The notes beneath the pieces were generated by a model. That model did not search any database. It was not told the DNA's origin and was given only the letters and a program-made list of their open reading frames with translations. 64,000 bases of DNA, taken from NCBI RefSeq assembly GCF_000026545.1, contig NC_011601.1; one strand, 5' to 3'. Shown in pieces: positions 35,732 to 56,029 of the stretch. How positions within the stretch are numbered: the stretch's first letter is position 1; each line of letters begins with the position of its first letter. Source of the stretch: Escherichia coli O127:H6 str. E2348/69 (GTDB lineage Bacteria > Pseudomonadota > Gammaproteobacteria > Enterobacterales > Enterobacteriaceae). The translations under genes and the position numbers were made by a program.

Positions 35732-35743
35732 GTGACATGTCAC
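35732..35743. promoter_or_regulatory. Palindrome GTGACATGTCAC (copy 1 of 3)
   Basis: Perfect 12-bp palindrome. The 15-mer GTGACATGTCACACT is identical to the copy at 56018. Confidence 0.5.
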
Positions 35744-35750
35744 ACTCATG

Positions 35751-35891
35751 CTATGACAAACCTATGTACCCTGCTATACCAGATAATATTAAAACAACTG
35801 CGACGGCAAATTCCCCATCTTCAATGATACATTTACGGTTCATTACGACAAGCGCGACAAGTGCCAACACAACAAGAATTATAACAATCAT
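35751..35891 (-). CDS. 46-aa two-helix hydrophobic peptide (unannotated small ORF)
   Basis: MIVIILVVLALVALVVMNRKCIIEDGEFAVAVVLILSGIAGYIGLS. Starts 11 nt after the 824-aa gene stop and is followed by a terminator. Confidence 0.4.
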   Translation of the reverse strand: MIVIILVVLALVALVVMNRKCIIEDGEFAVAVVLILSGIAGYIGLS

Positions 35892-35901
35892 TTTCGCATC
35901 C

Positions 35902-38376
35902 TTATTGCGGAGTAACATCCTGAGGTCGCCACCAGTATGTCTGGTTAAATTCTTTCTTCGAACGCTGCTCCATCTTACGCAGATAGCCAGGGGAAAAATA
36001 TTCTTGCATCTGATTAAAGATCATATGATCAAGCGCAGCCTTCAGGTACCAGATGTTGGCACCAGGTGTCAGACCTTTTCCAAGCTTAACCAGATCACCA
36101 CCAGTTTGCTCGCTCTTACCTTCTACCGCATTCAGTGGAATACCCTGGCCTATTTTGATAACGTCATCGACCAGGCCAGCCACCGGTCCGAGCATTGAAG
36201 CCAGTGCGCCGCTTCCGTACCGGGTGTGATCAGACAACAGGAAATCACCGTACAGGCCAAGACCGCCGCCTTTCAGCAGAGCACCAAGCCAGAATTTAGC
36301 AGCATCTTCACCGACCATATCCCGCGGATTACGGCCTGATGCCATGTCATTTAGTTGCTGAGAAAGCGCGCCAAGTATTGTCGTGCTGGCTATAAACGTC
36401 GCGATATAAGCAGCCCGCCCACCAGCAGAAGGCATACCCATAGCCCGCGACCAGTGGCGCATCACGACAGAGATCGGGAATGACTTGAACAAGAATACGC
36501 TGCGGGTTAATTCACCTTTCCATGTTCCGCGCTGAATACCTGAACCGGTAACCATCTGCTCACGCGCGCCCGGAGTTATCACAGCCATGTCAACTTCTTC
36601 GGTAACCGCTCCGAGTAACTTACGCATTGCTTCAAACTTCACGCGCTCCGGTGATCCGAGGTGCTCTACAGCAGCATCGGGTATACGCATGATGCTTTCC
36701 GGAGTCAGCATCGTATCGTTGCCTTTCCCCCAGTCCTCCTGTTGCGCCAGTTTCCACACGCTCCAGTCGGTATCGGTGATTCCTTTGCTTTTCAGTATGC
36801 GGAAATCGTCATTAGACAGGCTTTTCAGATCCGGCGTTCTGGTGACAACATCACCAAGACTGCCCATCATAGTGACACCGTAGGCACGCTTGTGCGCGTC
36901 TGACCACGCAGTTAATCCACTGGCGCGCATAACCGCAGTTGCAGCCCACCGGGAGACAGACGGTCCCATATTATCCATCGCCCAGCGGTTAACGCTGCCG
37001 AGCAGTGATTCCATAGCCAAGCCAGCACGACGAGCCCTGGCCAATTCAGTGCGATTCGTTGGGTCCATAGCTTCAAGCTGGTTACGGAATAGCTGATTCA
37101 TCGGAAGGTTGGTAACCTTCGCTGACAGGTACATGGTTCCAAGATCAGAGAACGATGACAACAGAGCAGAACCGAGACGACTGGCAACCATCCAGTTGCG
37201 GATGTTATCCGACCAGCGCGCAATATGCGGGTTTGCAACAGGCTGAGTTTTACCAGAAATAAAGTTATACAGGTTCTCAGTATTGTTTGCCTGGCGCTCT
37301 ATACTACCGGTATCCTGCGGGTTAGCCGTAGCTGTCTCTGATTTCGTCTGATCCAGCAGTGAGCGGAACACATGATCCGGGTTTGGTCCGTAGGTTTCCA
37401 CCAGCGCAATGTCTTTACTGATACCTTCCAGGTGCCCTACCATGATTTCCCAGAGTGACCGGTCGCCGTACATCTGCTGGTACTGAAGGTATGAATCAGC
37501 GTCTTTAAAGTGGATTTGGCGTGAGGCGTTGCCACGGTTTGCCCGCGCACCGGAAATACGCATACCGGTATCAGTGAGTTTATTCAGGCCACCTGTGGCA
37601 ATCGTGTTATAGGCTTCACCGAGAAAAGCTGATAACTCAGTATCATTCATCAACTGGCCGTCGGCGCGTGTGTAATATTTGCGATCGAGTTTACCAATCA
37701 CATCACTTACCCACTTATCCTTCGATACCGCCCCAACCTTTTCCATAGAGTGGTGCTGTGGTATACCCCAGTTTTCCAGATATCCGATATCACCACCAGC
37801 ATCATTAAACCTGCGGCGCAGTAGCTCAGTAACTTCGCCCCAGGCTTTAGCCCCTTTCATGGCTTTCGCATTGCCAGTTTTCTGGCCGCGCATCTCAAAC
37901 ACCAGATCACGGACTCCGGCTTCATCTTCAAACAGACCGAAGAAACGAGGATCAACAGCCTCGAATACCTCCTGTAACTGGCTTAATGCGTAATCACGGG
38001 TCGCTTTCGTGCGTGACTCAACAGACAGAAAGTTTGATTTACCGTCAGCGCTGAAGGCGATCGTGCGGTTGAGTGCGCCTAGCTTTCCGTCAGCACCCTG
38101 ATAACTGTTAATGAAGTTGTCCAGGCGCTGACGCGCTGCGATGGTAAGCGCGACACGGCGTTTTTTCAGTGCCACCTCTCGCTGCAACTCTTCAGCCGCC
38201 AGTTGCCCGGCTCGGCGCAGGCGTTCAGCGTCGTTAAGTTGACGCCATGACATCGGATCGTCACGGGCAATAGATCGCATATTGCGGTAAATGCGGTCTT
38301 CGATATTCTGTATTTCTCGGGCTGTAAGAGTGCGCTGTGCTGCCTGTTGCACGGCCTGAATACATTCCTGTCTCAT
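35902..38376 (-). CDS. Ejection/internal core protein (824 aa)
   Basis: Third of three giant genes between the tail tube and the tailspike. Position equals T7 gp16 / epsilon15 core proteins. No enzymatic motif recognised. Confidence 0.6.
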   Translation of the reverse strand: MRQECIQAVQQAAQRTLTAREIQNIEDRIYRNMRSIARDDPMSWRQLNDAERLRRAGQLAAEELQREVALKKRRVALTIAARQRLDNFINSYQGADGKLGALNRTIAFSADGKSNFLSVESRTKATRDYALSQLQEVFEAVDPRFFGLFEDEAGVRDLVFEMRGQKTGNAKAMKGAKAWGEVTELLRRRFNDAGGDIGYLENWGIPQHHSMEKVGAVSKDKWVSDVIGKLDRKYYTRADGQLMNDTELSAFLGEAYNTIATGGLNKLTDTGMRISGARANRGNASRQIHFKDADSYLQYQQMYGDRSLWEIMVGHLEGISKDIALVETYGPNPDHVFRSLLDQTKSETATANPQDTGSIERQANNTENLYNFISGKTQPVANPHIARWSDNIRNWMVASRLGSALLSSFSDLGTMYLSAKVTNLPMNQLFRNQLEAMDPTNRTELARARRAGLAMESLLGSVNRWAMDNMGPSVSRWAATAVMRASGLTAWSDAHKRAYGVTMMGSLGDVVTRTPDLKSLSNDDFRILKSKGITDTDWSVWKLAQQEDWGKGNDTMLTPESIMRIPDAAVEHLGSPERVKFEAMRKLLGAVTEEVDMAVITPGAREQMVTGSGIQRGTWKGELTRSVFLFKSFPISVVMRHWSRAMGMPSAGGRAAYIATFIASTTILGALSQQLNDMASGRNPRDMVGEDAAKFWLGALLKGGGLGLYGDFLLSDHTRYGSGALASMLGPVAGLVDDVIKIGQGIPLNAVEGKSEQTGGDLVKLGKGLTPGANIWYLKAALDHMIFNQMQEYFSPGYLRKMEQRSKKEFNQTYWWRPQDVTPQ

Positions 38377-38380
38377 TCAA

Positions 38381-40183
38381 TTATCCTCTCAAGAAACACG
38401 CTACAGCCACGTCAAAAAGGCTGGAATCCTGTACTGCCTGCTCATTCTCTCTGCTCACTTCGTCCAGCACTTCCCGAGCGCTGCGCGACTGTGGGTTTCC
38501 GTCATCATCGAGAATGGTGATCATCATGTCAGGTGACTCAACAAGCGAGTCTTCAGCGATACGCAGATCCATATCTCCGGCCTGTTCAGCCGTTGGCCTT
38601 TGCTCTGCATGTCGCAATACAGCACCAGGTTCAAAAGGTGCAGCCTCGTCAGGAGTCCGCACTTCTGCTGTTTTATAGAATGACATGGCCTGTGCGTTAA
38701 GATCGCTTTCTGCCTGCTGGCGTCTGGCTAATTCAGCCCGCGCTTCAAAGTTAACCCCTCCCTCAACATTCGCCGCCAGATTATCCTTTGCCGTCTGTAG
38801 TCTGACCGACTCGTCATTGATACGCTGGTCAATATCACGCAGCCTTTCCTGACGCGCTGCACGTGAACGTGATAATTCACGTCCGCTGCCTGAAGGTTGT
38901 TCGTTCAGGACTCCTGAGCGTTCCTGGTTGAGTGTTTCAATGGATCTCTCGATGCCAGCGATATCAGTCTGCAACTGATTAACCTGCTCAACGTCTAAAG
39001 CCTGAGCCGCTTGCTGTTCCAGCGCTCTGGTATCAACAGCTATCTGAGTGCTTCCTTCTTCAGAGCGATACAGGGTTTCATCTATGGCCTGAGAAATAAG
39101 GTTTCTCCTCCCAGGAATATCGCTAAATGATGCTGGTTCGGCAATGCTGGCCACATCAACTGCACGACCCTGGCTTACATCGTTCATTGCTTTCTGTAGC
39201 GCCTGTATATGCGCATCACGTGACAGAACATTAACCGGAACACCAGGAGCAACATCGATCTCAGCGTGATGTGAGGCATTTGCTGCCAGCGCTGCATCCA
39301 CCTCCGCTGGGGAAAATTCAGGAGTTGCAGCGCTCTCACCGCGGGCGTTCAGGAACCTACCTACACCACCAAATGCCACACCAAGAACCGCATCGATGGC
39401 GATAGACTGGCGATCAAACACATCGTACTGAGCCGCCATTTCGTTATAACCACCATCACGCAGCGTCTTTGCAGTCAGCCCACGCTGGGCCATCCCAAAG
39501 GCAATGTTAGTTCCGGCTGCGTATGCGATATCTGGAGCAGCGCGAACAGCAGTAGCTGCAACATTACGCACAGCACTTTCACCTGTCCTCGCTAGTTGTG
39601 CGCCAACACTTTCTGCCAGCGCACCACCAGCGCGCAGACCGAGGCTCATAGGGATCAATGTACCAGCGCCAGCAGTGACACCCTGCACCAGACCAGCTTC
39701 CTGAGCGGTCCTGAAATCTACGCCCTGAGCAGTCAATTTCTCAAACTCAGAGAAGCCCTGCAGTGCAGTGACGGCAGCAGCACCACCGGCTGGACCGGCC
39801 AGCAGCGTACCAACGACAGCCTGCCCGCCCATATCGAACAGACCATTCAGTACCTGACCAGCAGTTCCTGTTGTGGCGGCGTCAGGAGTCAGGCGCTTAA
39901 CTTGCTGCTCTGCGAGTTTTCGCTGTTCGCCGATGTATTCAGCCGATGTATCATTGATGGAAGTGTTTTCGTTAACAAACTTAGCGATGGGTGAAACGAT
40001 CTTATCCATTCCAGCCCAAAGAAGCTGGTCTGGTTTGGCAACCAGTCCAGAGTAAAGGCCCGAAACAGCAGCAGTACCTGAGTTATCGAAGAAACCGACA
40101 TCGGTATTAAACCCTGCTGGGTTAGATGCCGCTTCATCCAGTTGCTGATTCTGGTTAACTGCGTTGAGACCAAAGTAACTCAT
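38381..40183 (-). CDS. Ejection/internal core protein (600 aa), Ala/Gly-rich N-half, coiled-coil C-half
   Basis: Large ORF overlapping the upstream gene stop by 4 nt. Composition typical of internal virion proteins. Confidence 0.6.
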   Translation of the reverse strand: MSYFGLNAVNQNQQLDEAASNPAGFNTDVGFFDNSGTAAVSGLYSGLVAKPDQLLWAGMDKIVSPIAKFVNENTSINDTSAEYIGEQRKLAEQQVKRLTPDAATTGTAGQVLNGLFDMGGQAVVGTLLAGPAGGAAAVTALQGFSEFEKLTAQGVDFRTAQEAGLVQGVTAGAGTLIPMSLGLRAGGALAESVGAQLARTGESAVRNVAATAVRAAPDIAYAAGTNIAFGMAQRGLTAKTLRDGGYNEMAAQYDVFDRQSIAIDAVLGVAFGGVGRFLNARGESAATPEFSPAEVDAALAANASHHAEIDVAPGVPVNVLSRDAHIQALQKAMNDVSQGRAVDVASIAEPASFSDIPGRRNLISQAIDETLYRSEEGSTQIAVDTRALEQQAAQALDVEQVNQLQTDIAGIERSIETLNQERSGVLNEQPSGSGRELSRSRAARQERLRDIDQRINDESVRLQTAKDNLAANVEGGVNFEARAELARRQQAESDLNAQAMSFYKTAEVRTPDEAAPFEPGAVLRHAEQRPTAEQAGDMDLRIAEDSLVESPDMMITILDDDGNPQSRSAREVLDEVSRENEQAVQDSSLFDVAVACFLRG

Positions 40184-42690
40184 TGCGGGATCCCCTCTGA
40201 GAATCTCTGGCGCTGTTGGGTAAGGTCGATGACGACAGGAGTTCCATCATCTTTCAGCAAATACCCAGTGCCGAGTTTCACCAGATACTGGCTATCTCCA
40301 TAGCTTTGCAGACCGTACTGGCCTGGCGGTGCTTTAATTCCTGCGCCAGTCACCTGAGTTTTCCATGCCTGATCAACTTGTTTATCAAATTGTTCGGCAG
40401 ACATCCCCCAAGGCAAAAGAACACTTCCCATGCCGTTATAATCGTGCACGCCACCAGTAGCTACGTTAACAGCCTGCTTCCATGTGTCACTGTCAACTTC
40501 ACCCGAAACCACACCCTTCTTCGCCATCACCCCAGCGTAATAGTCCTTTGCTATCTCATAGGCCATTGATGCACCCTGCGCGTCACCGGCAAACGCATCC
40601 TTCACCATGTCAGAAAACTCTAGTCGCAGATCGTTATCCTTCGGCATTGGTATGCCCTTAGCATCATCAGTTCCTTTACGAGCCGCGGCACCGGACAGGA
40701 TGGTTTGCGCTGCTGTTTCTGGTGATACAGAAACATCAGGGTTAAACCAGTTTTTCTCAGCTACCACTCCTCCTGGCTTATCCATCAGGATCCCAGCTAC
40801 TGCTGCTGATGGCGCATTGGTGCTTATCTGCTGAAGCGCTGACATATATACCTGACCGCCCCCGGTGCTCTGCCGAATGGTGTCGAGATATGCAGTCTGC
40901 TGAGAAACTGGTGCATCGCGGAAGAAAGCCCCGATCTGATTCGCCTCTTCTTTGGAAAAGAACGTCAGCGGCGTACCGTATGACTTAGCCAGATCTACAG
41001 CCTGAGAAGCCCGAAGGGAAATCGTCTGGCCGAAATTGTTCTGGTTGGTCATATCAATAGGCTTTGTTTGACCGGAAGAAAGTGAAAACTGAATTGGGTC
41101 TGCTTTACGTTGCGCAAGAACAGTACTGGCAGCAGAGACAACGGCGTCATAGGTTTGGGCGCGCGCTGCATATCCTTCGCCAGTTTCACCAGTATCTGGC
41201 TTCAGATTTTCTACTGCTGCCTGAATGCTGCTGGTCGGCATGTTGCGAAACGATCCTATGTACTGCCCTGCGATCTGCGTGTTGCGAAACTCGGTATAGC
41301 GTAGATTTCCCTCCCGCACGCCGTAGGCGGCGAGGAAGTCGTTCTGCGTAGGCGCGTTCGGGAAATCAACTCCGCGCATGTATGCCGCGCTGGCATCGCG
41401 TACGCGGCTGTCGATATTGGTGCGGTATTCAGCCTGCTGCTGTTTACGGATCTGGTCAGCCTGGCGAAGGAATGTCGCCTGGGCCTCCGGAGATGCTGCA
41501 TCGAATGCCGCATTGCCGGTATAGCGCTTTGTGCTGGTTGGAAGTTGAGAGAGGCCAATTGCCGCGCTAACACCGGTAGCAAGTTGCTGATCGCTGTACG
41601 GCTGACTGCCGTTCTCATGTTGGATAATGGAGGCACACAAAGCCTTTAGCGTATCAGGGTTTGAGGCATCAAGCGGCTGGTCAGGCGTCACACCGAGTTG
41701 AGCACATACTGCCTGAATATAGGCGTCAGTGTTGTTATTGTCAGACGGCGGTGCCCAGCGATTAATGATGTCGTTTACAGTATCAATACCCTGTCTCTGG
41801 TATGACAGCAGGTTGCGTCCAAGCGCCCGAATGCCGTGTTCTGGCGTTTCGAATTTTGCAAATCGACCATCATCACCGGTCTGGCCCACCCACGGATTGG
41901 TTTTGCTGTATTCGAGGTTTCCTGGGTTGTTGTTGCGAATGCCACGGGCGCTATCACCAGAACCACCTTCTGATACTGCACGGCGGGAACCAGTAACTGT
42001 ATCGCTTAACTCGCCATTGCTCTGGATGAACTCGATCGAATTATTTGCCGACCACTGAGAAAGGGAAGCATCGGCGACCTTCTCTTTGAACTCAATCTTT
42101 TTGGCCTGAATCTGTTCAGAACTCCAGCCATGAGCGGAGCCATAATCTTCGATCTGCTGGAAAGTCTGCTGGTTGTAGAGAACATAATTGGCATTATCAC
42201 CATAGGCGGCAGCAGCCAGTTTTCCGTTGTTCGCCAGAGTCGCCTGGAACTGACCTTCTTCATAGGCATTGAGTTGGCTTATCTCATGCCTGCCAGCCTG
42301 GGTGGTGAACTGAATGCGCTGCTGCTGAGCCTGCTGTATAAATCCAGCCCGGGCACCTTCCGGCAATGTCATCGCGATCTGCTCTGCCTGAGCATCGAAT
42401 TGCTGGGTATAAACCTGCCCCTTGCCAAGAGCGTTCTTACCCTGCATGTTTAGAAGCCCGGTATCCGGGTTGGTTAGCAGATCACTGGAAATCTGGCTGA
42501 GTTGCAATGATGCATCCTGAGCCTGAGCAACATCCGCGCGCTGTTTTGCCTGAGCAAAAACATCAAGTGCTTTACCACCAACCTGCGTCAGGGCATCTCC
42601 GATATTTGGCTGATCGAATGCCTGAAAACCAGGAGACTGAAACCCTCTGCTTTCGACCTGACGACCGGTGACTGTTGGTACTGTTGGCAT
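40180..42690 (-). CDS. Ejection/internal core protein (836 aa) with possible muralytic segment
   Basis: Contains ARGIRNNNPGNLEY...HGIRALGRNLLSY. I recall this motif from phage virion-associated cell-wall-active proteins (uncertain). Confidence 0.55.
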   Translation of the reverse strand: MPTVPTVTGRQVESRGFQSPGFQAFDQPNIGDALTQVGGKALDVFAQAKQRADVAQAQDASLQLSQISSDLLTNPDTGLLNMQGKNALGKGQVYTQQFDAQAEQIAMTLPEGARAGFIQQAQQQRIQFTTQAGRHEISQLNAYEEGQFQATLANNGKLAAAAYGDNANYVLYNQQTFQQIEDYGSAHGWSSEQIQAKKIEFKEKVADASLSQWSANNSIEFIQSNGELSDTVTGSRRAVSEGGSGDSARGIRNNNPGNLEYSKTNPWVGQTGDDGRFAKFETPEHGIRALGRNLLSYQRQGIDTVNDIINRWAPPSDNNNTDAYIQAVCAQLGVTPDQPLDASNPDTLKALCASIIQHENGSQPYSDQQLATGVSAAIGLSQLPTSTKRYTGNAAFDAASPEAQATFLRQADQIRKQQQAEYRTNIDSRVRDASAAYMRGVDFPNAPTQNDFLAAYGVREGNLRYTEFRNTQIAGQYIGSFRNMPTSSIQAAVENLKPDTGETGEGYAARAQTYDAVVSAASTVLAQRKADPIQFSLSSGQTKPIDMTNQNNFGQTISLRASQAVDLAKSYGTPLTFFSKEEANQIGAFFRDAPVSQQTAYLDTIRQSTGGGQVYMSALQQISTNAPSAAVAGILMDKPGGVVAEKNWFNPDVSVSPETAAQTILSGAAARKGTDDAKGIPMPKDNDLRLEFSDMVKDAFAGDAQGASMAYEIAKDYYAGVMAKKGVVSGEVDSDTWKQAVNVATGGVHDYNGMGSVLLPWGMSAEQFDKQVDQAWKTQVTGAGIKAPPGQYGLQSYGDSQYLVKLGTGYLLKDDGTPVVIDLTQQRQRFSEGIPQ

Positions 42691-42702
42691 TTCTATGTCT
42701 CC

Positions 42703-43245
42703 TTATCGACCGGTTGGTGTGCCGATGGCAGCGCTGATCGGTGCCGCTTTGCTTTGAGTGAATGGTGACCACGTTCCGCCGCCCATCTGGTAAGCGCCGT
42801 ATGCCTGAAGTGGAGCAGTCAGCAGTGTGGTAAATGCGCCCATATTCCCCTGCTTGCGTGCTGAGCTGGCCTGAGCTTTGTAGTTTTCAGCCTGAACCTG
42901 AAAGCCATATGCTTCACGCTGAGCGTTATTAACCGTAGTCAGCGCATCAAGCGCGCCAAACTGAGCTGTATCGCCAAAGATATCAAGCGCTCCACCAGTG
43001 GAAAGATCTGCGCCAGTTGCGCCCATGGTTGCCGCCTGGGTGCCAGCAGCCTGGCGGTTACGACGACGAACCTCATCAGCCTGAGCATTACCACGGTTGA
43101 TAGAATCCTGTGCCTGTGCCGTGGCCACTTCTGCATTTTGCTCGGCTACAGCAGACGAATACTTACCTTGCTGGTACTGGTTGTATGCTGAAACGCCACT
43201 TAATGCGACACTGGCGCCAGCGAGAGCGATAGCCGGGCTGCACAT
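42703..43245 (-). CDS. Internal virion protein (180 aa, Ala/Gln/Gly-rich)
   Basis: Position equals T7 gp14. Low-complexity helical sequence. Confidence 0.5.
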   Translation of the reverse strand: MCSPAIALAGASVALSGVSAYNQYQQGKYSSAVAEQNAEVATAQAQDSINRGNAQADEVRRRNRQAAGTQAATMGATGADLSTGGALDIFGDTAQFGALDALTTVNNAQREAYGFQVQAENYKAQASSARKQGNMGAFTTLLTAPLQAYGAYQMGGGTWSPFTQSKAAPISAAIGTPTGR

Positions 43246-47546: not shown

Positions 47547-47556
47547 CGCTATCCCC

Positions 47557-49035: not shown

Positions 49036-49049
49036 GGTTATTTCCTCTC

Positions 49050-49760: not shown

Positions 49761-49774
49761 ACGTTACCTTCTTG

Positions 49775-50320
49775 TTAATCAATGCTGATGACGCGTTGAA
49801 CCCTGACAGATACAGAGGTCAACGTGATGGTCTGGCCTGATTCATTTGAAAGGCCGACCTGAATTCCGCTGACGGTGAACGGATCAAGTTCATTCATGGT
49901 GAAACTGGCAAGTACATCGTCACGGTTACTGATGCTGGTTCCGTTCACCTTCACGCTTGACTCGGATCCGACGATGTCGCCATTTGGGCGCCTGGTCTGA
50001 ATCATCCATTCCCTTGCCGTTCCTGACGCACCACCAACGGTACCGTTAATACGGGTACTGAAAAGAACCTGGCTCGGCGCTTCCTGAGCAGGGAATATAA
50101 GATTTCCCGAATTGATGCTGAGATTCGCGTTACCGTCAGCAGCTTTAACGATCCCGGAAAGTGAAAAGAAGTTCTGAAAAGCGGCATCAGCCACAACCTG
50201 AGATCCAGTCCAGTTAAATATGTCCATCTGAAATGTCTGCGGCTCTTCATCCACTGCATAAAAGTCTGCAATGGTCGAGTTACCATCGTTTCTCAGCCTG
50301 ATCATGCGTTTACGGATCAT
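49775..50320 (-). CDS. 181-aa beta-rich protein of unknown function in head module
   Basis: Coupled (ATGA) to the upstream 99-aa gene. No recognisable motif. Confidence 0.5.
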   Translation of the reverse strand: MIRKRMIRLRNDGNSTIADFYAVDEEPQTFQMDIFNWTGSQVVADAAFQNFFSLSGIVKAADGNANLSINSGNLIFPAQEAPSQVLFSTRINGTVGGASGTAREWMIQTRRPNGDIVGSESSVKVNGTSISNRDDVLASFTMNELDPFTVSGIQVGLSNESGQTITLTSVSVRVQRVISID

Positions 50321-50616
50321 TTGTCTTTCTCCTGAGACTCAGCGGCCATTTTCAGATACTGTTCAGGACAGTGCGCCATGACGCGCTGAAACAATGCCAG
50401 TGCCAGGTTGCGCTGCCCTTCGTTGAATGCAGTTAAGTGCGAATCACCAGCGAAGCATGGTGAGAACACCTTTCCCCTCTCCAGCATCGACCAGATAACG
50501 CGGCGGCCTTGCTCGCTACCCATAACGAACTTGATGTCGTCGATATCACGCTGAGCCAGAAGTTGCTGTTTGGCGTCAAGCTCTGCTTTGCGTCCTTCGT
50601 CGTCGATATCCATCAT
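50317..50616 (-). CDS. 99-aa protein of unknown function downstream of portal
   Basis: ATGA overlap with the portal stop. Confidence 0.5.
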   Translation of the reverse strand: MMDIDDEGRKAELDAKQQLLAQRDIDDIKFVMGSEQGRRVIWSMLERGKVFSPCFAGDSHLTAFNEGQRNLALALFQRVMAHCPEQYLKMAAESQEKDK

Positions 50617-52283
50617 TGCTGCGGTGCTCCTGCTGCATTAGCGATAGCAGTTAATGCGCTCGGGTCGCTGGTCTGCGTTTCGCTGAGAGTCTTGGCCCCC
50701 TGCGCTGCCGCCTGACCCATAGCCATTGCCTGTGCCGCCTGAGCCTGTTTAGCTCGCTCTTCACGAATACCCTGTACCTGCTCCTGCGGAACGATGACGG
50801 TTGGCGATACGCCTGACATTTCAGAGAACGCGTCGATAGCCTGATCCACATCAAGCTTGTCGAGCGCTTCAGGTTTGAACTGCGCCAGTTGCCCGATAAA
50901 TCCAACTGTCTGCGACAGGCTGGTGAGGCCGATAGATTTCTGAGCCTGAGCCATCACAGAGATGTACTCGATACGCAGCGGCATACCCTGAAGAACGTCA
51001 GGAGGTTCGGGCAACATGTTCTTGCGGGCCATGATTGAGAACACGCGATCGATAAGCGGGTTAAGCGCTTCGTCATTCAGGCGCTCAAGCACCGGGCCAA
51101 GCATCAGCAGTTTCTCTTCCTTCATCTCGATCACCGCTTCCACCGGCATAGATCGGGTGTTGATTTTTTGCAGCATCATGAAGAGGTCAACGAAGTAGGC
51201 GCTGTTGATGGTCTGCCTAGTGTCCTGAATGTCAGCCAGCAGGTCGGCGGTATTCGGGTTTACCAGGTATGCAGGTTTGAAACCATCCTGACCGGTCAAC
51301 ACGTCGAGATATGTCACATCGCCAGGCAACAGGGAAACACGCTGATTCTTGAGCGATGTTGGGGCAACCATCGGCGGGTTAGTGGCTTTATCGATCAGCT
51401 GAGCTTTGCGCTTCTGCTCAACCTGAAGTGCTTTAACCTGACCGAGTGCCAGCATACCAGGGCAAGATGAGGCGTAAACGTCTTCGCCATTCACTTCCCA
51501 GCGCGGCGCCAGAATAGGGAATTCATCAAATCCGGATTCACGCAGCAGCTTGTCGGAGTCGCCGCCAGACTCGAAATAGACAGAGCGGTAAGGCTTGTTC
51601 TTGCTGTCCATCTTCCCGCTGTCGCGGTTGACGTTAGGTGTGATGCAGTGGTTAACCTTCACCCACGTTTCATACGTGCCGTTTTCCCACATGCCTTTTA
51701 CGGATGTGCTGACGTTATCCAGACCGAATTCCTGCACCATCTGGCGCACGGTCATGGAGAACTGGCGAATGCAGGTGTCTACGCTACCGCGCGGACTGTT
51801 AGCCAGGTAGTAACTGCCAATAGGGAAAGGCATTGTGCGGATCACGTCCTGGTCATCTTCCAGAACAGCCATAGCGCCGGTGCCGAAAGTACCCAGACTT
51901 GCGTACATAACAGGCAGTGACTGATACAAATTCGATTTGTTGAACACTTCGTTCATGCGGCGCTGCACGACTTCCAGCCAGATTTTCACCGGGCCATAGT
52001 CCATCATGTCAGGGTCAGGCGTTGCCAGTTTGAACCACGGTCGTGCCGGACTGGTGATGCCTGACATCATGCCGCTGGACAGAATTCGCTGAGCCATTGA
52101 GCCAGTGGGATCAACAATCTTGGTGTTACGGCGATCATCACGGTTTACATCAGATGTCAGAAAGCGGGAGCCACGCGGATTGATGAAGTCACTAAGATCA
52201 CGCCAATGCGATTCGAACGATGTGCGCTCATTCTTCAGCTGTGCGAGCTGCTTCAGCAGGCGCTCTTTTTCGGTTTCCGCCAT
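50613..52283 (-). CDS. Portal protein (556 aa)
   Basis: Size, acidic/Gln-Ala-rich C-terminal tail, and position between the terminase and scaffold genes. Confidence 0.8.
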   Translation of the reverse strand: MAETEKERLLKQLAQLKNERTSFESHWRDLSDFINPRGSRFLTSDVNRDDRRNTKIVDPTGSMAQRILSSGMMSGITSPARPWFKLATPDPDMMDYGPVKIWLEVVQRRMNEVFNKSNLYQSLPVMYASLGTFGTGAMAVLEDDQDVIRTMPFPIGSYYLANSPRGSVDTCIRQFSMTVRQMVQEFGLDNVSTSVKGMWENGTYETWVKVNHCITPNVNRDSGKMDSKNKPYRSVYFESGGDSDKLLRESGFDEFPILAPRWEVNGEDVYASSCPGMLALGQVKALQVEQKRKAQLIDKATNPPMVAPTSLKNQRVSLLPGDVTYLDVLTGQDGFKPAYLVNPNTADLLADIQDTRQTINSAYFVDLFMMLQKINTRSMPVEAVIEMKEEKLLMLGPVLERLNDEALNPLIDRVFSIMARKNMLPEPPDVLQGMPLRIEYISVMAQAQKSIGLTSLSQTVGFIGQLAQFKPEALDKLDVDQAIDAFSEMSGVSPTVIVPQEQVQGIREERAKQAQAAQAMAMGQAAAQGAKTLSETQTSDPSALTAIANAAGAPQQ

Positions 52284-52297
52284 CTCTGCCTACTCCG

Positions 52298-52504
52298 TTA
52301 CTGACCAAGCAGCGTTTTACCGCTGGTGTTTGCGGTTGAAGTGTCACCCTGCGCACCAGTCAGCAGAGTAGAGCTGCGCCCTGCTGCTGCGCGGCGGCGG
52401 CGCTCTTCGTCGTCACGAGAACTGACAACTGCTGCATCCTGCTCCTGTGGCGCAGCCTGTACTTCTGGCGCTGCTGGCACTGATGGCTTGCTGCCGATAC
52501 ACAT
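52298..52504 (-). CDS. 68-aa Pro/Ala/Arg-rich protein preceding portal
   Basis: ATG behind GGAG (8-nt spacing). MCIGSKPSVPAAPEVQAAP... Confidence 0.5.
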   Translation of the reverse strand: MCIGSKPSVPAAPEVQAAPQEQDAAVVSSRDDEERRRRAAAGRSSTLLTGAQGDTSTANTSGKTLLGQ

Positions 52505-52593
52505 AGCAATAGCTCCGTACGCAATTAAATTATTACCAATTTAACCACATATGATTTATTTAGCGTAGGATATTGACACTTATAACATCAGAT

Positions 52594-52610
52594 ATTACCT
52601 TTTAGGTAAT
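52594..52610. promoter_or_regulatory. Repressor operator, perfect ATTACC-TTTTA-GGTAAT, at 5' edge of the RNA island
   Basis: Exact 17-bp operator palindrome. TTGACA at 52573-52578 lies upstream but no good -10 is visible. Confidence 0.7.
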
Positions 52611-52855
52611 TGGTTCGTGTGTTGAATTGATGAATTGCGGAGGTGGTTATGTAACCGCTTGTGCAGTAGCCCGGAGTACCGCAGCAATAAATTGGGCTTA
52701 AAAGTAAAGGCGGTGGATAAGCGGAGCATCATCTCCGCACATAACTAAAAGCGCGCTTCAGTGAATGACCTTTGAGCCTGGTCGTTAAATCCAAACGGTG
52801 GAGTGCGCTTTCAGGTGTGTAGCAGTACGGCATATGGCACATGTGCCGCAGCGGT

Positions 52856-52891
52856 CCGGATGGGTTCCCTTGATGCTACTTCCCCAGCCGG
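52856..52891 (+). repeat. Hairpin 1 presenting loop motif TTCCCTTGATGCT (52865-52877)
   Basis: CCGGATGGG / CCCAGCCGG stem (one mismatch) with an 18-nt loop. Confidence 0.55.
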
Positions 52892-53055
52892 GTAGCCGGA
52901 ATGTGCAAGCCAGTGTTAGGTAAGCACGGACAGACGATTCACCATCGTGGCGATACGGTGTGACACCTCGGAAGAGACGAGGATGCAACGATGATAGCAT
53001 TGGGGTGACCGGTTAATCCCATGACGATAACCGATACAGGCGCAGTGCTCTCTTC

Positions 53056-53169
53056 GTTGTGGTTAGCTCAGATAGGTTAGAGCTCCATCCATGCTTGCCA
53101 TTGCTGCATGGGCGGGGAATGGGTTCCGAAAGGATCGCCGCGCAGGTTCGAATCCTGCACCACAACCCA
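53056..53169 (+). ncRNA. tRNA-like module (114 nt) with encoded CCA; canonical acceptor, D and T arms but no canonical anticodon loop
   Basis: G-1 + TTGTGGT pairs with ACCACAA + C73, then CCA. D arm is GCTC-AGATAGGTTA-GAGC. T arm is GCAGG-TTCGAAT-CCTGC. 57 nt lie between D and T stems, where a class I tRNA has about 23. Confidence 0.6.
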
Positions 53170-53224
53170 ATCACGCCTTAGGACCGTGATGAAGCGCCCA
53201 TAAGAACAATGCTGTGTAGCCTTT

Positions 53225-53259
53225 GGCGGTGGCAGTTTCCCTTGATGCTGACCACCGTC
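53225..53259 (+). repeat. Hairpin 2 presenting loop motif TTCCCTTGATGCT (53237-53249)
   Basis: GGCGGTGG / CCACCGTC stem with a 19-nt loop. Confidence 0.55.
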
Positions 53260-53338
53260 ACTTTTACACCAGAACGCCATTGCGATGACGTTGCGCTGTA
53301 AACCCGTAAGCCATGGAAGGCACCCTTGCTTCCATTTC

Positions 53339-53363
53339 GCCCGGTTCGTCCGGGCATTTTTTT
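53339..53363 (+). terminator. Intrinsic terminator between structured RNA and the 143-aa ORF
   Basis: GCCCGG-TTCGT-CCGGGC followed by A and T7. The RBS of the next ORF starts 1 nt later. Confidence 0.85.
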
Positions 53364-53375
53364 AAGGTGATTAGA

Positions 53376-53807
53376 ATGAGTAAAGACCTGTTCGACATGA
53401 AGCGCCTTCCGGTTGACCGGGTTGCTGCGAGAGTTGTTGGTAAGGGCGTTGATTGGACGCCAAATAAAGTTATTCAAACTGGTGACAGCGATCTTCCGTT
53501 GCCAGTATTTCCTGCATATAACATTAAAAACCCGCAACAACGACGCGAAGTGCAAGCAATGATCGGAAGAAAGAGCGGGAGATTGACAATAATTGGTCTC
53601 GCGGTCACACAGGGAGCAAAAAATAAAGGGGCTCGCTATGTTGCTCGTTGTGTTTGCGGGATTTATACGTATCGCAGAGCAAAAAATTTCAAGAATAATT
53701 CTGATGATTTTGACGGATGCGAGCGCTGCAGAGAACTGTTGTTTCTCAAAAGGGAAGAAGTTAAACGCAGAACGGGAAAATGGGTTGACTGGAAAGAGCT
53801 GATGTAA
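53376..53807 (+). CDS. 143-aa basic zinc-ribbon protein of unknown function
   Basis: ATG 53376 behind AAGGTGA; the track start 53313 lies inside a hairpin. C-terminal GRLTIIG..ARYVARCVCG(23)CERC pattern resembles a widespread uncharacterised phage zinc-ribbon family (recollection). Confidence 0.6.
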   Translation: MSKDLFDMKRLPVDRVAARVVGKGVDWTPNKVIQTGDSDLPLPVFPAYNIKNPQQRREVQAMIGRKSGRLTIIGLAVTQGAKNKGARYVARCVCGIYTYRRAKNFKNNSDDFDGCERCRELLFLKREEVKRRTGKWVDWKELM

Positions 53808-53810
53808 GAC

Positions 53811-53824
53811 TGTGACACGTCACA
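53811..53824. promoter_or_regulatory. Palindrome TGTGACACGTCACA (copy 2 of 3 of GTGACAYGTCAC)
   Basis: Perfect 14-bp palindrome between the 143-aa ORF stop and its terminator. Confidence 0.5.
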
Positions 53825-53827
53825 ACT

Positions 53828-53851
53828 AGCCCGCCGATGCGCGGGCTTTTT
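53828..53851 (+). terminator. Intrinsic terminator of the island (abuts terL stop)
   Basis: AGCCCGC-6nt-GCGGGCT followed by TTTTT on the + strand. No T-tract on the minus strand. Confidence 0.8.
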
Positions 53852-55332
53852 CATGCATAGGGATCGTACTCTGTGAGAGCCTTGCCCTGTTGGCTCTGTT
53901 GCTGCCCATAGTTAAACTGTTTTTTGGTGACCGGCGCGGCATATGTCAGCACGTAGGCGTCGGCATCGTTCGGGGATCTGCCAAGCAACTCTTTGACTTC
54001 TTCCTTGTCCTGCAAAATCTTCCTGCTGTCCTTCAGCCTGACCTTGTACTCCGGCGCACTCAGCTCATCGGCAAGGTTCTGGCTATCCAGTTGCGCCCCA
54101 AGCTTCAGTGCGTCGCGGGCTGATTTGTACATCTCCCCGCGCTTATTGCCCATCTCGGGATCCGCGGTACCGCTTCCGAACTGAATCAGCGTCCAGTTTC
54201 GCCCCCAGTTATCGCCAACTGATTTAAGCCCGGTCCCGTACCCGTAATCGATAAACACAGCATCGGCCTGGTACTGGTCCTCGAAGTCGGCAATTATTTT
54301 GGCAAACAATACGTCGTCAGTGGTGCGTTGCCACTCCCCGAGTTTCTTACAGTGCAGTCCCTGCCGAAGATAGATAACCGCCGGGTCTTTACCCTGGTGA
54401 GACGGGTCGACGCCAAGAACTACAGCAGCGTGCTGAACCTGTGCCGGAGTAATAACCCTGCCAACAGCTGGCTGAGTCAGGCCAGACGGAATGAACTGGT
54501 TTTCAGACGCATCAGGGAAGATCCCGCGCACGCGAACCTTCACGAAGTCGCTGTCTTCGCCGTAGTCGTCCACCCACTTTTGCAGTTGCTGCTTGTTGGT
54601 GCCTTCCACGGTGCGGCTGTCAATCTGCGCGCACTTCCAGCGGTGTTTGTACTTGCGGAAACATTCACGGAAACGCCCGGTGTTACGCGTCGGGTTACCG
54701 AACGCCACCCAGATGATTTCGGTGTCTTCGTCCGTCAGCGCCCCTTCAGCTACCTCCCACACCAGATCGGCAATGTTGGATGCTTCGTCGAATACCACGA
54801 TGATGCGCTTGCGCTCGTTGTGCAGCCCTGCGAACGCCTCGGTGTTGTGTTCAGACCATGGGATTGCGTCAGCGCGCCAGCGTTTATCGTGACCGGGATC
54901 GTTGCTGTACATCGCTGTGGCGGTGCAGGTGAACCACTCTTTCGTAATAGCCAGGTTCGACCATTTGATGATTTCCGGCCATGTCTTGGTACGCAACTGA
55001 TTGTCGGTGTTGGCGGTCACCACCACCTTGCAGTCCTCGCAGGTGGACATGCCCCAGTTAATCAGCATCGAGATGAAAGCAGATTTGCCGATACCATGGC
55101 CGGATGCGCGCGCCAGCATCAAAGGCTGGTGACGCGTCGCTGGGTTCTGGAGGTGATCGCGTATCTCGCGGAAGGCGTCAGCCTGCCACTTTCTGGGACC
55201 TGTGGCGTGCGCCAGCTCTGTGCCATCCTCTCCCCACGGAAACGCGTACAGCGCATAGCCCAGCGGGTCATACGTGAACGAGGCGATATCCTCAACGAGC
55301 TGCTCTTCCGGCGACATGGCTTCGGCTGTCAT
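53851..55332 (-). CDS. Terminase large subunit (493 aa)
   Basis: Walker A-like ARASGHGIGKSAF, Walker B VVFDEAS, and a C-terminal nuclease-like region. Overlaps the terS stop by 4 nt. Confidence 0.88.
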   Translation of the reverse strand: MTAEAMSPEEQLVEDIASFTYDPLGYALYAFPWGEDGTELAHATGPRKWQADAFREIRDHLQNPATRHQPLMLARASGHGIGKSAFISMLINWGMSTCEDCKVVVTANTDNQLRTKTWPEIIKWSNLAITKEWFTCTATAMYSNDPGHDKRWRADAIPWSEHNTEAFAGLHNERKRIIVVFDEASNIADLVWEVAEGALTDEDTEIIWVAFGNPTRNTGRFRECFRKYKHRWKCAQIDSRTVEGTNKQQLQKWVDDYGEDSDFVKVRVRGIFPDASENQFIPSGLTQPAVGRVITPAQVQHAAVVLGVDPSHQGKDPAVIYLRQGLHCKKLGEWQRTTDDVLFAKIIADFEDQYQADAVFIDYGYGTGLKSVGDNWGRNWTLIQFGSGTADPEMGNKRGEMYKSARDALKLGAQLDSQNLADELSAPEYKVRLKDSRKILQDKEEVKELLGRSPNDADAYVLTYAAPVTKKQFNYGQQQSQQGKALTEYDPYA

Positions 55333-55922
55333 TCTTCACCACCAGCCCGCTCTTTCACGCGACGGCGGGCCTTAGCCATGCGGTCGGCAATGGTGACGGT
55401 GCCGGAAACTTCCAGGCGCTCTTTGAACGCATTGACGTCGACGTGCTTACCAATCAGCTCGAGGTTCTTCACCTTGTCAGGCCATTTGATTTTCTTGAGG
55501 ATGGTCTCGATTGATGTCTCATCCATGTTCATGATGGTAGAGGACAGGTCGAAACCACTCAGTGTGGTGCGCCATATCTTCGGCCACTCGCGGATAGGCT
55601 TCAGGGTGCCATCATCGTTCAGGATGTCGATCACATCCATCTGGTCGATTTCCACCAGGCGAAGTAGCACGTAATCAGCACTGACGCGCAAACGCTTGTT
55701 GCGTTCCTCCATCAGCTCGGCGATCCGTTTCTGGATGCGCTCATCACGCATCATGACACTGGCTTTAACCGCTGCCGTATTAGGCGAGAACCCTGCGTTA
55801 ATCGCCGCCTGCGTCTGATTCTCAGGGCATTTGGTATATTCCTGCGCATAAGCCTCCTGCATCGCTGTTAGGGGCTTGTACTGAGTTGATTTTCGTTTTG
55901 GTGCTTTTGGTTCTGCGGGCAT
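55329..55922 (-). CDS. Terminase small subunit (197 aa)
   Basis: Start set at ATG 55922 (MPAEPKAPKRK..). Carries an HTH-like AINAGFSPNTAAVKASVMM segment typical of small terminases. Confidence 0.75.
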   Translation of the reverse strand: MPAEPKAPKRKSTQYKPLTAMQEAYAQEYTKCPENQTQAAINAGFSPNTAAVKASVMMRDERIQKRIAELMEERNKRLRVSADYVLLRLVEIDQMDVIDILNDDGTLKPIREWPKIWRTTLSGFDLSSTIMNMDETSIETILKKIKWPDKVKNLELIGKHVDVNAFKERLEVSGTVTIADRMAKARRRVKERAGGEE

Positions 55923-55941
55923 TGTTACCACCGAAGTAATA

Positions 55942-55958
55942 ATTACCGTTTTGGTAAT
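55942..55958. promoter_or_regulatory. Repressor operator, perfect ATTACC-GTTTT-GGTAAT, 20 bp upstream of terS
   Basis: Exact operator palindrome between the early-operon terminator and terS. Confidence 0.7.
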
Positions 55959-55966
55959 AGTAACAC

Positions 55967-55994
55967 GCAAAACAAAGCCGCCATAGTCGGCGGC
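55967..55994 (-). terminator. Intrinsic terminator separating early genes from the late (terS) operon
   Basis: Minus strand reads GCCGCC-GACTAT-GGCGGC followed by TTTGTTTTG. Confidence 0.75.
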
Positions 55995-56017
55995 CATTGC
56001 AATTTATTGTCGATATC

Positions 56018-56029
56018 GTGACATGTCAC
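56018..56029. promoter_or_regulatory. Palindrome GTGACATGTCAC (copy 3 of 3)
   Basis: Overlaps the stop of the 112-aa gene, upstream of the terS leader. Confidence 0.5.

Follow-up and report, generated by a model that had tools for sequence, protein, structure and literature searches.

The described systems closest to the locus analysed here are the ribbon-helix-helix (RHH) regulators (P22 Arc, Mnt, CopG, TraM and the ParD/TacA antitoxins), the lambda regulator Q with its terminator tR', the LacI repressor at operator O3, and the host protein MatP with its site matS. There are 23 matS sites in the 800-kb Ter region, and prophages are known to avoid disturbing the host Ter system. LacI bound at O3, at the 3' end of lacI, reportedly (Abo et al. 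2000, EMBO J) stalls RNA polymerase, giving a message that lacks its stop codon and LacI that is tagged by tmRNA, in a feedback loop. Literature searches gave nothing relevant on the palindrome described below, on late regulation of epsilon15, on N15 gp46 or on a phage system resembling MatP and matS, and we found no publication on the pairing of gene and site.

The window, a stretch of 64,000 nucleotides from Escherichia coli O127:H6 strain E2348/69, contains an epsilon15-like prophage, and the features discussed here are collected in Table 1. Three palindromes had been noticed in it by a sequence-only reading; all were exact matches where that reading had placed them, and 100 dinucleotide-preserving shuffles of the window gave no match to the palindrome. 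The 15-mer GTGACATGTCACACT, said to be common to copies 1 and 3, was checked and is correct, copy 2 lies inside the 14-mer TGTGACACGTCACA at 53811-53824, and the overlap claimed between copy 3 and the stop codon of the 112-aa gene is real. When GTGAC-N(k)-GTCAC was counted for k from 0 to 7, k = 2 alone occurred in the window, four times against about 0.06 expected. The fourth match, which had not been listed before, is a possible further copy of the motif within the tailspike gene; the tailspike gene of epsilon15 has no copy inside. The full consensus of the motif reads TGTGAC-NN-GTCACA.

Table 1. Coordinates, in the window, of the palindromes and of the genes, operator and terminators around them.
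Feature	Coordinates	Strand	Remarks
Possible fourth copy, GTGACGGGTCAC	34795..34806	no strand	inside tailspike gene
86-aa Ant antirepressor homologue	35441..35701	+	phrog_450; epsilon15 gp19; convergent with late operon
Intrinsic terminator hairpin, then TTTATTTTT	35713..35730	-	ends leftward late transcript; 1 nt after copy 1
Palindrome copy 1, GTGACATGTCAC	35732..35743	no strand	7 nt past stop of last small late-operon ORF
48-aa membrane-protein ORF	35751..35897	-	phrog_7892; last gene of late unit ending at copy 1
143-aa cargo ORF of island	53376..53807	+	phrog_18493; weak similarity to HNH-endonuclease family
Palindrome copy 2, GTGACACGTCAC	53812..53823	no strand	4 nt past stop of 143-aa cargo ORF
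Intrinsic terminator hairpin	53828..53847	+	ends rightward island; 4 nt after copy 2
Rep-repressor operator, ATTACCGTTTTGGTAAT	55942..55958	no strand	upstream of terS; outside the motif family
Intrinsic terminator hairpin, then TTTGTTTT	55976..55995	-	22 nt downstream of copy 3
Palindrome copy 3, GTGACATGTCAC	56018..56029	no strand	overlaps TGA stop of 112-aa gene
112-aa gene (epsilon15 gp49 / N15 gp46 / phrog_536 family)	56026..56364	-	candidate binder of palindrome

Each of the three copies stands beside a predicted intrinsic terminator hairpin. The 'mirror-image order' of hairpin and palindrome reflects only that the terminators lie on opposite strands; read along the terminated strand, all three sites have the order stop codon, palindrome, hairpin and T-run. 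A grammar common to the two rightward islands had also been suggested, and this holds at 53.8 kb, where the terminator serves the island, and fails at 35.7 kb, where it serves the leftward late operon and not the 86-aa Ant gene. The terminator beside copy 1 is annotated in epsilon15 (19531-19556), as is, at the homologous place, the one at 55976..55995, which ends the early-right operon before terS. Of the neighbouring genes, the 86-aa ORF has a homologue annotated 'ant' in SPC32H, and the 48-aa ORF corresponds to phiV10 p21; the cargo at the place of the 143-aa ORF differs among relatives, and epsilon15 has p50 there, of the N4 gp49 / Sf6 gp66 family. The motif offers a practical marker for annotating operon ends and moron junctions in epsilon15-like prophages.

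Several known elements were tried as identities for the palindrome and rejected. No match to a LexA box (CTGT-N8-ACAG) was found in the window. The palindrome of the Rep-repressor operator is another one, ATTACC-N5-GGTAAT, which occurs 10 times in the window, and epsilon15 carries an annotated 'repressor' protein_bind site at the position homologous to the one in Table 1. CRP recognises TGTGA-N6-TCACA and FNR recognises TTGAT-N4-ATCAA; the phage site is TGTGA-N4-TCACA, with its TGA and TCA cores 4 nt apart and not 6. As the -35 element of a short leader promoter, GTGACA takes part in a 9/12 match in the window that is not conserved elsewhere. A pac or packaging site is contradicted by relatives in which genes are inserted between gp49 and terS and the motif stays with gp49. 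Finally, epsilon15 gp48, considered as a binder because of a bZIP note by Kropinski, has weak coiled-coil Pfam matches only and is not among the proteins shared by ZF40.

The motif is positionally conserved in relatives. In epsilon15 its copies are at 2142, 19517 and 39612, and the homologues of copy 1 are at 19517 in epsilon15, 19493 in phiV10, 32282 in TL-2011b and 19634 in SPC32H. These four phages have the motif at the same relative places, with all three copies in epsilon15 and SPC32H. In the epsilon15-likes every copy comes after a stop codon and, read along the strand that is terminated, precedes an intrinsic terminator by 1-22 nt. A homologue of copy 2 is present in 67 of 74 epsilon15-like loci. 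Among these 67, an island-strand terminator follows the motif by 2-6 nt in about 60, with hairpin sequences that differ, and the cargo stop codon ends 4 nt ahead of it in 47; the island-end copy is missing in the relative L071, which also lacks the cargo ORF. Scarcity of non-coding space at operon ends could suffice to place the motif near stops and terminators, and some copies in ZF40-like, N15 and Mu-like genomes lie within coding regions, away from terminators.

The association of the motif with the gene of the 112-aa protein extends well beyond these phages. GTGAC-N2-GTCAC overlaps the stop codon of the family gene in 72 of 80 epsilon15-like loci, with downstream sequence that is unrelated between lineages, and the motif overlaps or adjoins that stop in all 49 N15-like loci and in about 50 of 57 Yersinia P2-like loci. 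In one Yersinia subgroup it lies 7 nt beyond a different stop codon; thus, its placement is not a coding constraint. The unrelated myovirus ZF40 has the motif starting 3 nt past the stop, with two more exact 14-mers (three copies in total); in Vibrio phages the copies lie at +226 to +235 and at about +2.8 to 2.9 kb, and there are 2-3 copies within 10 kb in Mu-like and lambdoid phages and in one further lineage, where chance would give 0.02. Altogether, the motif is at or near the stop codon of the family gene in at least eight phage lineages, and in both epsilon15 and ZF40 it is the most recurrent palindrome genome-wide. Across family-bearing loci the spacer of two was counted 147, 105, 58, 7, 10 and 4 times (331 copies), the remaining spacers in the range 0 to 7, that of matS (3) among them, totalled 6, and the 3-bp spacer was seen once in about 3.4 Mb. 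The arms of the motif are invariant over lineages whose proteins share only 31-40% identity.

A search in the reverse direction agrees: the bare 14-mer retrieved 119 stretches from IMG/VR, 31 of which carry a family member. Some 300 chance matches are expected in a collection of that size, so the unclassified matches are uninformative; one of their contexts gave no hit to any phage record, and another led to a Klebsiella phage that lacks a family member and has only one copy of the motif, located where a small, unrelated ORF stops. The homologue in Aeromonas phage 32 (31% identical) is accompanied neither by such sites nor by a convincing alternative palindrome. We consider it highly probable that the motif is functionally tied to the gp49/gp46/phrog_536 family, and most likely gene and site form a cassette that moves among unrelated phages, with one site on or beside the gene's own stop. 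The sequence-only reading had pointed to the adjacent RHH-like, Cys-rich protein as the binder, and this is the right candidate, since the gp49 family is the sole substantial protein shared between the epsilon15-likes and ZF40. On the strength of these genome comparisons, direct binding of the motif by the family protein is probable.

We analysed the 112-aa protein by structure modeling and profile searches. A first AlphaFold2 model made with close homologues only was poor (pLDDT 63), and Foldseek found no match to it in the PDB. The better model (pLDDT 76; core 83-92) suggests an N-terminal basic helix, an RHH-like core and a C-terminal Cys cluster, and a BFVD search with it returned nothing informative. 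The protein models as a putative RHH DNA binder with a cysteine cluster; its predicted RHH core should form a dimer, and the cluster probably binds zinc. Residues R8, R13, Y50, E54, C79, C82 and C99 are invariant across the family, as are K9 and Q12 in alignment A3. No Pfam match above threshold was obtained for eight diverse members, the best score being PF10723 (RepB-RCR_reg; E 0.034, 14.5 bits with a cut-off of 21) for one Vibrio-clade member, and a PDB sequence search gave no match. PHROG assigns the protein to phrog_536, 'transcriptional regulator', and neither Pfam nor PHROG detects similarity to Q families. Within the epsilon15-likes, the predicted β-strand does not covary with the central dinucleotide of the site: the centre varies and the protein is unchanged.

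The family comprises about 150 clusters at 50% identity and ranges over podo-, myo-, P2-like, Mu-like, lambdoid and telomere phages of enterobacteria and vibrios. In SPC32H and the SPN1S group its member has lost the basic helix and the β-strand, and all three sites are kept, which reflects either a recent deletion or another reader of the sites; since the SPN1S group keeps growing, phage growth does not need the intact protein. No evidence marks the protein as the late regulator, a role that had been raised for the reader of these sites. It occupies accessory early positions in ZF40, N15 and the P2-like phages; ZF40 and N15 have annotated Q-type or late-activator genes beside it, and the late regulators of P2-like phages are of the Ogr type.

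The whole reading that we prefer, with a probability of roughly 40%, is that the palindrome is the cognate operator of the protein encoded at 56026-56364 and acts as a boundary or roadblock element. The protein would be produced from the distal end of the early operon, would recognise two GTGAC half-sites exactly 2 bp apart, and would then occupy its own sites. Bound at the 3' ends of transcription units, it may be a roadblock or insulator for RNA polymerase during elongation; this role of the site is, taken singly, tentative and somewhat doubtful. At the gene's own stop codon, stalling would cut the message before the stop and so give negative feedback of the LacI-O3 / tmRNA kind, and the same site may curb read-through from the early operon, into terS here and, in relatives, into genes under LexA control. 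The sites in the convergent junctions of 53.8 and 35.7 kb would each reinforce a one-directional intrinsic terminator and so prevent antisense transcription of the island, the packaging genes, the late operon and ant. A block at 53.8 kb would also stop read-through from terL to the portal gene, which would seem counter-productive for a roadblock unless the portal operon has its own promoter.

The same protein and site could have the opposite effect, with the protein serving as a DNA-loaded antiterminator in the manner of lambda Q or of RfaH at ops. Bound just upstream of a terminator, it would contact polymerase pausing at the U-tract and cause read-through, so that early transcription enters terS-terL and late transcription passes ant into the tailspike gene; the latter read-through, at 35.7 kb, would usefully link the late operon to that gene. 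This version accounts for the succession of regulator gene, site, terminator and packaging genes, which mirrors that of lambda Q, qut, tR' and late genes, and for the motif being invariably 5' of the hairpin on the terminated strand. The centres of sites 1 and 2 lie about 35-40 bp upstream of the release point, which resembles the distance from the Q binding element to the pause that Q modifies. However, the site has no conserved promoter (the 9/12 sigma-70 match of the window is absent from other lineages), the protein has no likeness to Q families, and the spacing to the terminator is uneven, 22-45 nt at the gene-proximal site and 2-6 nt at the others. In many relatives the terminator after the site is missing altogether, and at 53.8 kb island transcripts would run antisense into terL. 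Together with the late activators already present in ZF40, N15 and the P2-like phages, and the growth of the SPN1S group with a truncated protein, these observations make antitermination unlikely.

The half-sites of the motif equal those of matS (GTGACRNYGTCAC) and are set one base closer, and the identity extends to the inner A/T of the consensus GTGACATTGTCAC. This raises the idea that a host protein, above all MatP, reads the sites and that the phage exploits or perturbs the functions of MatP on its own DNA (MukBEF unloading, ZapB anchoring and bridging), with the phage protein as competitor or modulator. Consistent with this, MatP binds DNA via an RHH domain, the hosts of family-bearing phages all belong, as far as is known, to the MatP/MukBEF group of γ-proteobacteria, and the sites survive in SPC32H, where the phage protein is truncated. 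Against it, the strict 2-bp spacer shifts and rotates the half-sites relative to matS, a host site has no need to be tied, in at least eight lineages, to the stop of a single phage gene, and true matS is avoided by prophages; we give this idea little credence. Similarly improbable is that the family is a phage counterpart of MatP, whose 'matS-minus-one' sites would be read only by its own RHH protein for a chromosome-level purpose. An hhalign comparison of the family alignment with E. coli MatP (sequence checked against PDB 4d8j) showed no significant similarity, with a probability of 0.14 and an E-value of 0.42 over 31 columns. Such a system might keep MukBEF or host MatP off replicating phage DNA, bridge distant parts of the phage genome or position phage DNA in the cell, and the one-base shift would keep it orthogonal to the host Ter system.

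A further proposal treats the palindrome mainly as a non-regulatory recombination boundary, a short conserved stretch where microhomology or some site-specific activity would let modules swap. In each of the three cases the motif does lie exactly at the border of conserved and variable sequence (gp49 against the variable downstream region, terminator and terL against cargo, and terminator and ant against the end of the late operon), and L071 is without both cargo and motif. Any strongly conserved site of 12-14 bp would, however, resemble a mosaic junction, and there are copies in conserved coding regions, in ZF40 gp08 homologues, N15 repA and the Mu-like transposase, that are not module edges. 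No recombinase is linked to the motif, the protein has no catalytic domain, and strict palindromy and spacing point to a symmetric protein as the reader; we regard a recombination boundary as very improbable.

As the sequence-only reading had proposed, the palindrome suits a dimeric protein that binds DNA better than it suits an RNA hairpin: the hairpin is weak and does not surpass shuffled sequences (12-mer, -1.2 kcal/mol, z-score -0.03; 14-mer, -2.8 kcal/mol, z-score -0.85), it forms in only one of four native contexts, and the arms show no compensatory changes because they are invariant. An RNA element at the 3' end of messages, be it a processing site, a stability element, a boxB-like site or a terminator accessory, would suit a motif always transcribed right before a terminator hairpin on the terminated strand, a phiV10 variant (GTGACATGTTAC) that would still pair through G-U wobble, and a Cys cluster that, as in Mu Com, might in principle be able to bind RNA, but with the folding results above, no Rfam family match and a modeled fold like that of DNA-binding RHH proteins, it is the least probable of the explanations.

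In the preferred reading, a widespread, uncharacterised small phage protein is paired with a precise candidate DNA target, so that a 'hypothetical protein' becomes directly testable. Its layout as a regulator would be unusual, with one site on its own stop codon and others where transcription units have their 3' ends. Should the roadblock be true, it would be a general phage device that insulates convergent and consecutive operons and adds feedback via truncated messages. The near-identity of the sites to matS also suggests that the phage protein may interfere with, or purposely avoid, host MatP/MukBEF, and if that tie holds it would join phage biology to chromosome organisation.

Unlike the described RHH regulators of phages and plasmids, which have palindromic operators, the phage protein has no Pfam RHH match, with PF10723 below threshold; its family has in addition an invariant basic helix ahead of the strand and, at the C terminus, a CxxC...C...C cluster, and its sites are not at its own promoter but on its own stop, at other 3' ends or within genes. 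In MatP/matS, the site is 13 bp, whereas the phage site is strictly 12 bp; the phage protein lacks both the four-helix bundle and the C-terminal coiled coil of MatP, its phages have 2-3 sites per 40-kb genome, and true matS was not found in family-bearing phages. As in lambda Q/tR', the gene of the regulator directly precedes its own DNA site, the two move together as one cassette, and the epsilon15-like site is followed by a terminator and then virion genes. Unlike that of Q, however, the phage site has no conserved embedded promoter, the protein has no Q homology, further sites fall within genes and where other units end, and in ZF40 and N15 the family occurs alongside annotated Q-like or late-activator genes. 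With LacI at O3 it shares an operator that overlaps the 3' end of the regulator's gene, which for the phage protein is an analogy of position only.

The palindrome GTGAC-N2-GTCAC is present in the window as three exact copies at the places named in the sequence-only reading, with 0 matches in 100 shuffles and a chance expectation of ~0.06 matches for the whole window. That reading had also described terminators in mirror-image order beside the copies at 35.7 and 53.8 kb. A terminator scan places one next to each of the three copies, and the order is in fact uniform: read along the terminated strand, all three copies show stop codon, palindrome, hairpin and T-run. The motif starts 7 nt after the stop codon at copy 1 and 4 nt after it at copy 2, and overlaps it at copy 3; the hairpin follows the motif by 1, 4 and 22 nt, respectively. 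A fourth match, GTGACGGGTCAC, lies within the tailspike gene; the epsilon15 tailspike gene holds no copy.

Positions of palindromes, terminators, genes and associated elements in the window and in compared phage records (L numbers)
Feature	Record	Position	Strand	Remark
Palindrome, copy 1	window	35732-35743
Palindrome, copy 2	window	53812-53823
Palindrome, copy 3	window	56018-56029
Fourth match	window	34795-34806		in tailspike gene
Intrinsic terminator, copy 1	window	35730-35713	minus	terminator scan
Intrinsic terminator, copy 2	window	53828-53847	plus	terminator scan
Intrinsic terminator, copy 3	window	55995-55976	minus	terminator scan
86-aa ORF	window	35441-35701	plus	epsilon15 gp19 / SPC32H Ant antirepressor homologue
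143-aa island ORF	window	53376-53807		preceded by long untranslated leader
112-aa RHH-like/Cys-rich gene	window	56026-56364	minus	last of early-right operon; epsilon15 gp49 homologue
Gene fragments	window	56480-57195		just 5' of 112-aa gene
"Pseudogenic tRNA-Gly"	window	53057-53169		113 nt, within 52640-53360
LexA box	window	35403-35419		upstream of ant
Rep operators	window	35348, 52594, 55942, 58370, 58432, 60739, 60756, 61480, 61542, 61618
Palindrome	epsilon15	39612		on gp49 stop codon
Palindrome	epsilon15	19517		on gp18 stop codon, just before annotated terminator facing gp19/ant
Palindrome	epsilon15	2142		between terL stop and stop of opposite-strand gene p50
Palindrome	ZF40 (L004)	5124-5137		inside early-left ORF
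ZF40 early-left ORF homologues with 14-mer	L215, L217, L222, L226 and others
umuD-like inserts	L030-L035, L052, L057, L062-L082 and others	~10-90 nt after gp49 stop
Deletion junction	SPN1S/SPC32H group (L320)	38179-38632
Palindrome	Klebsiella phage ST16-OXA48phi5.3 (L318)	7537-7548

The copies belong to an epsilon15-like (Uetakevirus-type) prophage that runs from ~28.3 kb onward, next to yfgI, with its virion genes on the minus strand; 35000-37000 is 100% identical to the E. coli O127:H6 E2348/69 chromosome. The Rep-repressor operator ATTACC-N5-GGTAAT is found 10 times in the window against 0.13 expected. Each virion unit (terS, the portal operon/island and the tailspike/ant region) has one operator upstream, so the repressor appears to control the late units directly, in line with Kropinski's annotation of epsilon15. 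The LexA box upstream of ant, CTGTATGTTTTATACAG (CTGT-N9-ACAG), has one extra T relative to the canonical CTGTATGTTTATACAG of epsilon15 in the same-strand reading, CTGT-N8-ACAG has no match anywhere in the window, and the antirepressor of this prophage may be under impaired SOS control. Just 5' of the 112-aa gene, the genes carry a fragment annotation ("incomplete; partial in the middle of a contig"), which indicates that the early-right region has partly decayed. The RNA/zinc-ribbon island of the sequence-only reading separates the large terminase gene from the portal operon, and its long untranslated leader contains the RefSeq "pseudogenic tRNA-Gly". This element looks like a tRNA-like sequence carrying an insertion; ARAGORN and Rfam gave no match to this region of the window. 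An intact tRNA-Arg occupies the same place in SPC32H, SPN9TCW and several E. coli phages, and the epsilon15 leader is without the tRNA-like insert and is annotated as an RNase III site.

The expectation that the motif would keep its positions in relatives was confirmed in epsilon15, phiV10, TL-2011b and SPC32H: epsilon15 carries GTGACATGTCAC at three places matching the relative positions in the window, and the other three follow the same pattern. At the terL junction the palindrome and terminator are kept in both epsilon15 and the window despite differing cargo, p50 being of the N4 gp49 / Sf6 gp66 family and the 143-aa protein of another. Among 80 IMG/VR loci with a gp49 homologue (74-99% identity), the TGA stop lies inside GTGAC-NN-GTCAC in 72; two further loci have a one-base variant, and in another two the motif is displaced by 191 nt. 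The arms are invariant in these loci, while the central two bases are AT, AG, GG, CT, CC, AC or GT. The copy at the junction of terL and cargo is found in 67/74 loci, 26-923 nt from the terL stop, and in ~60 of the 67 a terminator on the island strand starts 2-6 nt after it, with hairpins that differ. One locus without a cargo ORF (L071) also lacks motif and terminator, in keeping with covariation of motif and insert. By comparison of these genomes, then, three transcription units of epsilon15-like phages carry a copy at their 3' end, with a terminator directly after it.

What follows the gp49 motif is of several types: a terminator, then the Rep operator, then terS; a TTGACT -35 box (usually 6 bp off), then a LexA box, then a umuD-like gene; a LexA-box promoter of another kind; or a different terminator. 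The LexA-box promoter with its umuD-like gene (MGFPSPA...) is inserted between gp49 and terS in many epsilon15-like relatives, and in these loci the -35 box is near-constant at 6 bp after the palindrome with a spacer of variable sequence, the LexA box being flanked by the 8-bp inverted repeat CCTCACAT...ATGTGAGG. Likewise, LexA-box-tum lies downstream of the family gene in Yersinia P2-like phages.

A tblastn search with the 112-aa protein returned 144 phage records, including Pectobacterium myovirus ZF40, Yersinia P2-like phages, N15 and its Klebsiella relatives, Aeromonas phage 32 and a large Vibrio phage group. ZF40 shares no substantial protein with epsilon15, phiV10, TL-2011b or the window prophage besides the gp49 family, and it has three exact 14-mers TGTGACATGTCACA, one of which begins 3 nt after the stop of the family member gp22. 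Another ZF40 copy lies inside the early-left ORF, where it codes for C-D-M-S-Q. The exact 14-mer, with widely differing flanks, occurs 21 times inside homologues of this ORF or at most 400 nt away, in a sample that was picked by motif and in which DNA constraint is not separable from a conserved peptide. In N15, gp46 ends in GCG TGA C followed by TGGTCAC, which gives GTGACTGGTCAC, and further copies lie within repA (33237) and between gene 33 and an annotated terminator (28550); the stop-codon copy is present in 49/49 N15-like IMG/VR loci, with a second copy 4.3-7.1 kb upstream wherever the upstream flank is long enough. TGTGACGCGTCAC sits on the stop codon in ~50 of 57 Yersinia P2-like loci, and in a subgroup with a different C-terminus the motif is found 7 nt further on, a displacement that rules out coding constraint as its cause. 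The Vibrio phages carry copies 226-235 nt and ~2.8-2.9 kb downstream of the family gene. Three more distant members, from a Mu-like transposable phage (beside gemA and mor), a lambdoid prophage and a third element, have two or three copies each within 10 kb against 0.02 expected.

When all family loci were pooled as a spacer control, spacer 2 accounted for 331 matches and all other spacers from 0 to 7 for 6 in total, and across the whole epsilon15 and ZF40 genomes GTGAC-N2-GTCAC is the most recurrent palindrome. Conversely, 31/119 viral-contig stretches fetched by the bare 14-mer contain a family member, to be set beside the rarity of the family, which forms 147 clusters at 50% identity among 1.8 billion representatives. 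The site is a strict 5+2+5 palindrome and has been co-inherited with the gene as a cassette across unrelated phages, which upholds the proposal that the adjacent RHH-like protein is the candidate binder.

The 112-aa protein belongs to no Pfam family and lacks sequence relatives in the PDB, and we found no experiment behind the PHROG label "transcriptional regulator". Its N-terminal basic helix has R8 and R13 invariant in both family alignments, and K9 and Q12 in one of them (A3); by alignment, a short strand, two helices and a CxxC...C...C cluster follow. This arrangement suggests that the family is likely an RHH DNA-binding protein, and we infer that it binds the motif as a symmetric oligomer. 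Literature searches turned up no report of the motif, of this family or of a phage matS-like system. Gene and site would make up a new regulator-operator pair, with the general kind (RHH protein and palindrome) already known; the pair is unusual for the site on the gene's own stop codon, for its matS half-sites and for its spread across many phage types.

More speculatively, the bound protein may act on elongating polymerase as a roadblock or insulator, which would limit read-through into the next unit at each of the three sites. The terminators of the two convergent junctions are one-directional, and the palindrome takes the position that an A-tract would have in a bidirectional terminator; bound protein could therefore halt the opposing transcript. 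Through copies inside early genes, a distal early product could switch off its own operon. If polymerase stalled some 10-20 nt upstream, its transcript would end before the stop codon. LacI at O3 stalls polymerase and leaves such a stop-less message, and the outcome for the phage protein would by analogy be the same. We prefer a roadblock to Q- or RfaH-like antitermination, which is rather unlikely, because a roadblock is sensible at all three sites, where the site abuts a LexA-controlled promoter without an intervening terminator, and for the copies inside early genes of N15, ZF40-like and Mu-like phages, and because it accounts for the conserved stop-codon placement.

Some observations count against this reading of protein and site. 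All three sites persist in SPC32H and its close relatives, although their family member has lost the basic helix and strand to a deletion that, in the SPN1S/SPC32H group, brings a ParB/DGHH-like ORF up against the middle of the gp49 homologue. The remnant of 78 aa, starting MLARNC, amounts to a natural N-terminal knockout and shows the intact protein to be dispensable; in so shallow a lineage there may just have been too little time for the sites to decay. The retained sites also leave room for another reader, and a host factor such as MatP in that part is unlikely. The Aeromonas phage 32 homologue has no motif sites. Klebsiella phage ST16-OXA48phi5.3 has a single GTGACATGTCAC across a TGA stop and the next ATG (TGAcATG), at the stop of a 49-aa "Cro" ORF, a context repeated in several IMG/VR contigs; its 29-kb record holds no family member. 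The closeness of the motif to stop codons and terminators may partly reflect scarce non-coding DNA.

Lineages share no related DNA directly 3' of the gp49-stop motif, which places the motif with the gp49 gene and not with the downstream sequence. We give little credence to the palindrome as a recombination boundary. An RNA element is very unlikely, because the hairpin reaches only -1.2 to -2.8 kcal/mol, no better than shuffles, and the arms are invariant rather than covarying. The DNA site and candidate binder of the sequence-only reading stand, and its specific role and "common grammar" hold only in part.

The phage site GTGACA-TGTCAC equals the consensus of matS, the 13-bp site of the host protein MatP, minus its single central base. 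The 13-bp form is essentially absent from family-bearing phages, in agreement with the published avoidance of matS by prophages. By hhalign, MatP has no significant similarity to the phage family, and its other domains are absent from the phage protein. The phage site is thus composed of matS half-sites at a different spacing, and the protein is not a MatP family member. The likeness is worth a direct test, because all known hosts of family-bearing phages are bacteria of the MatP/MukBEF group.
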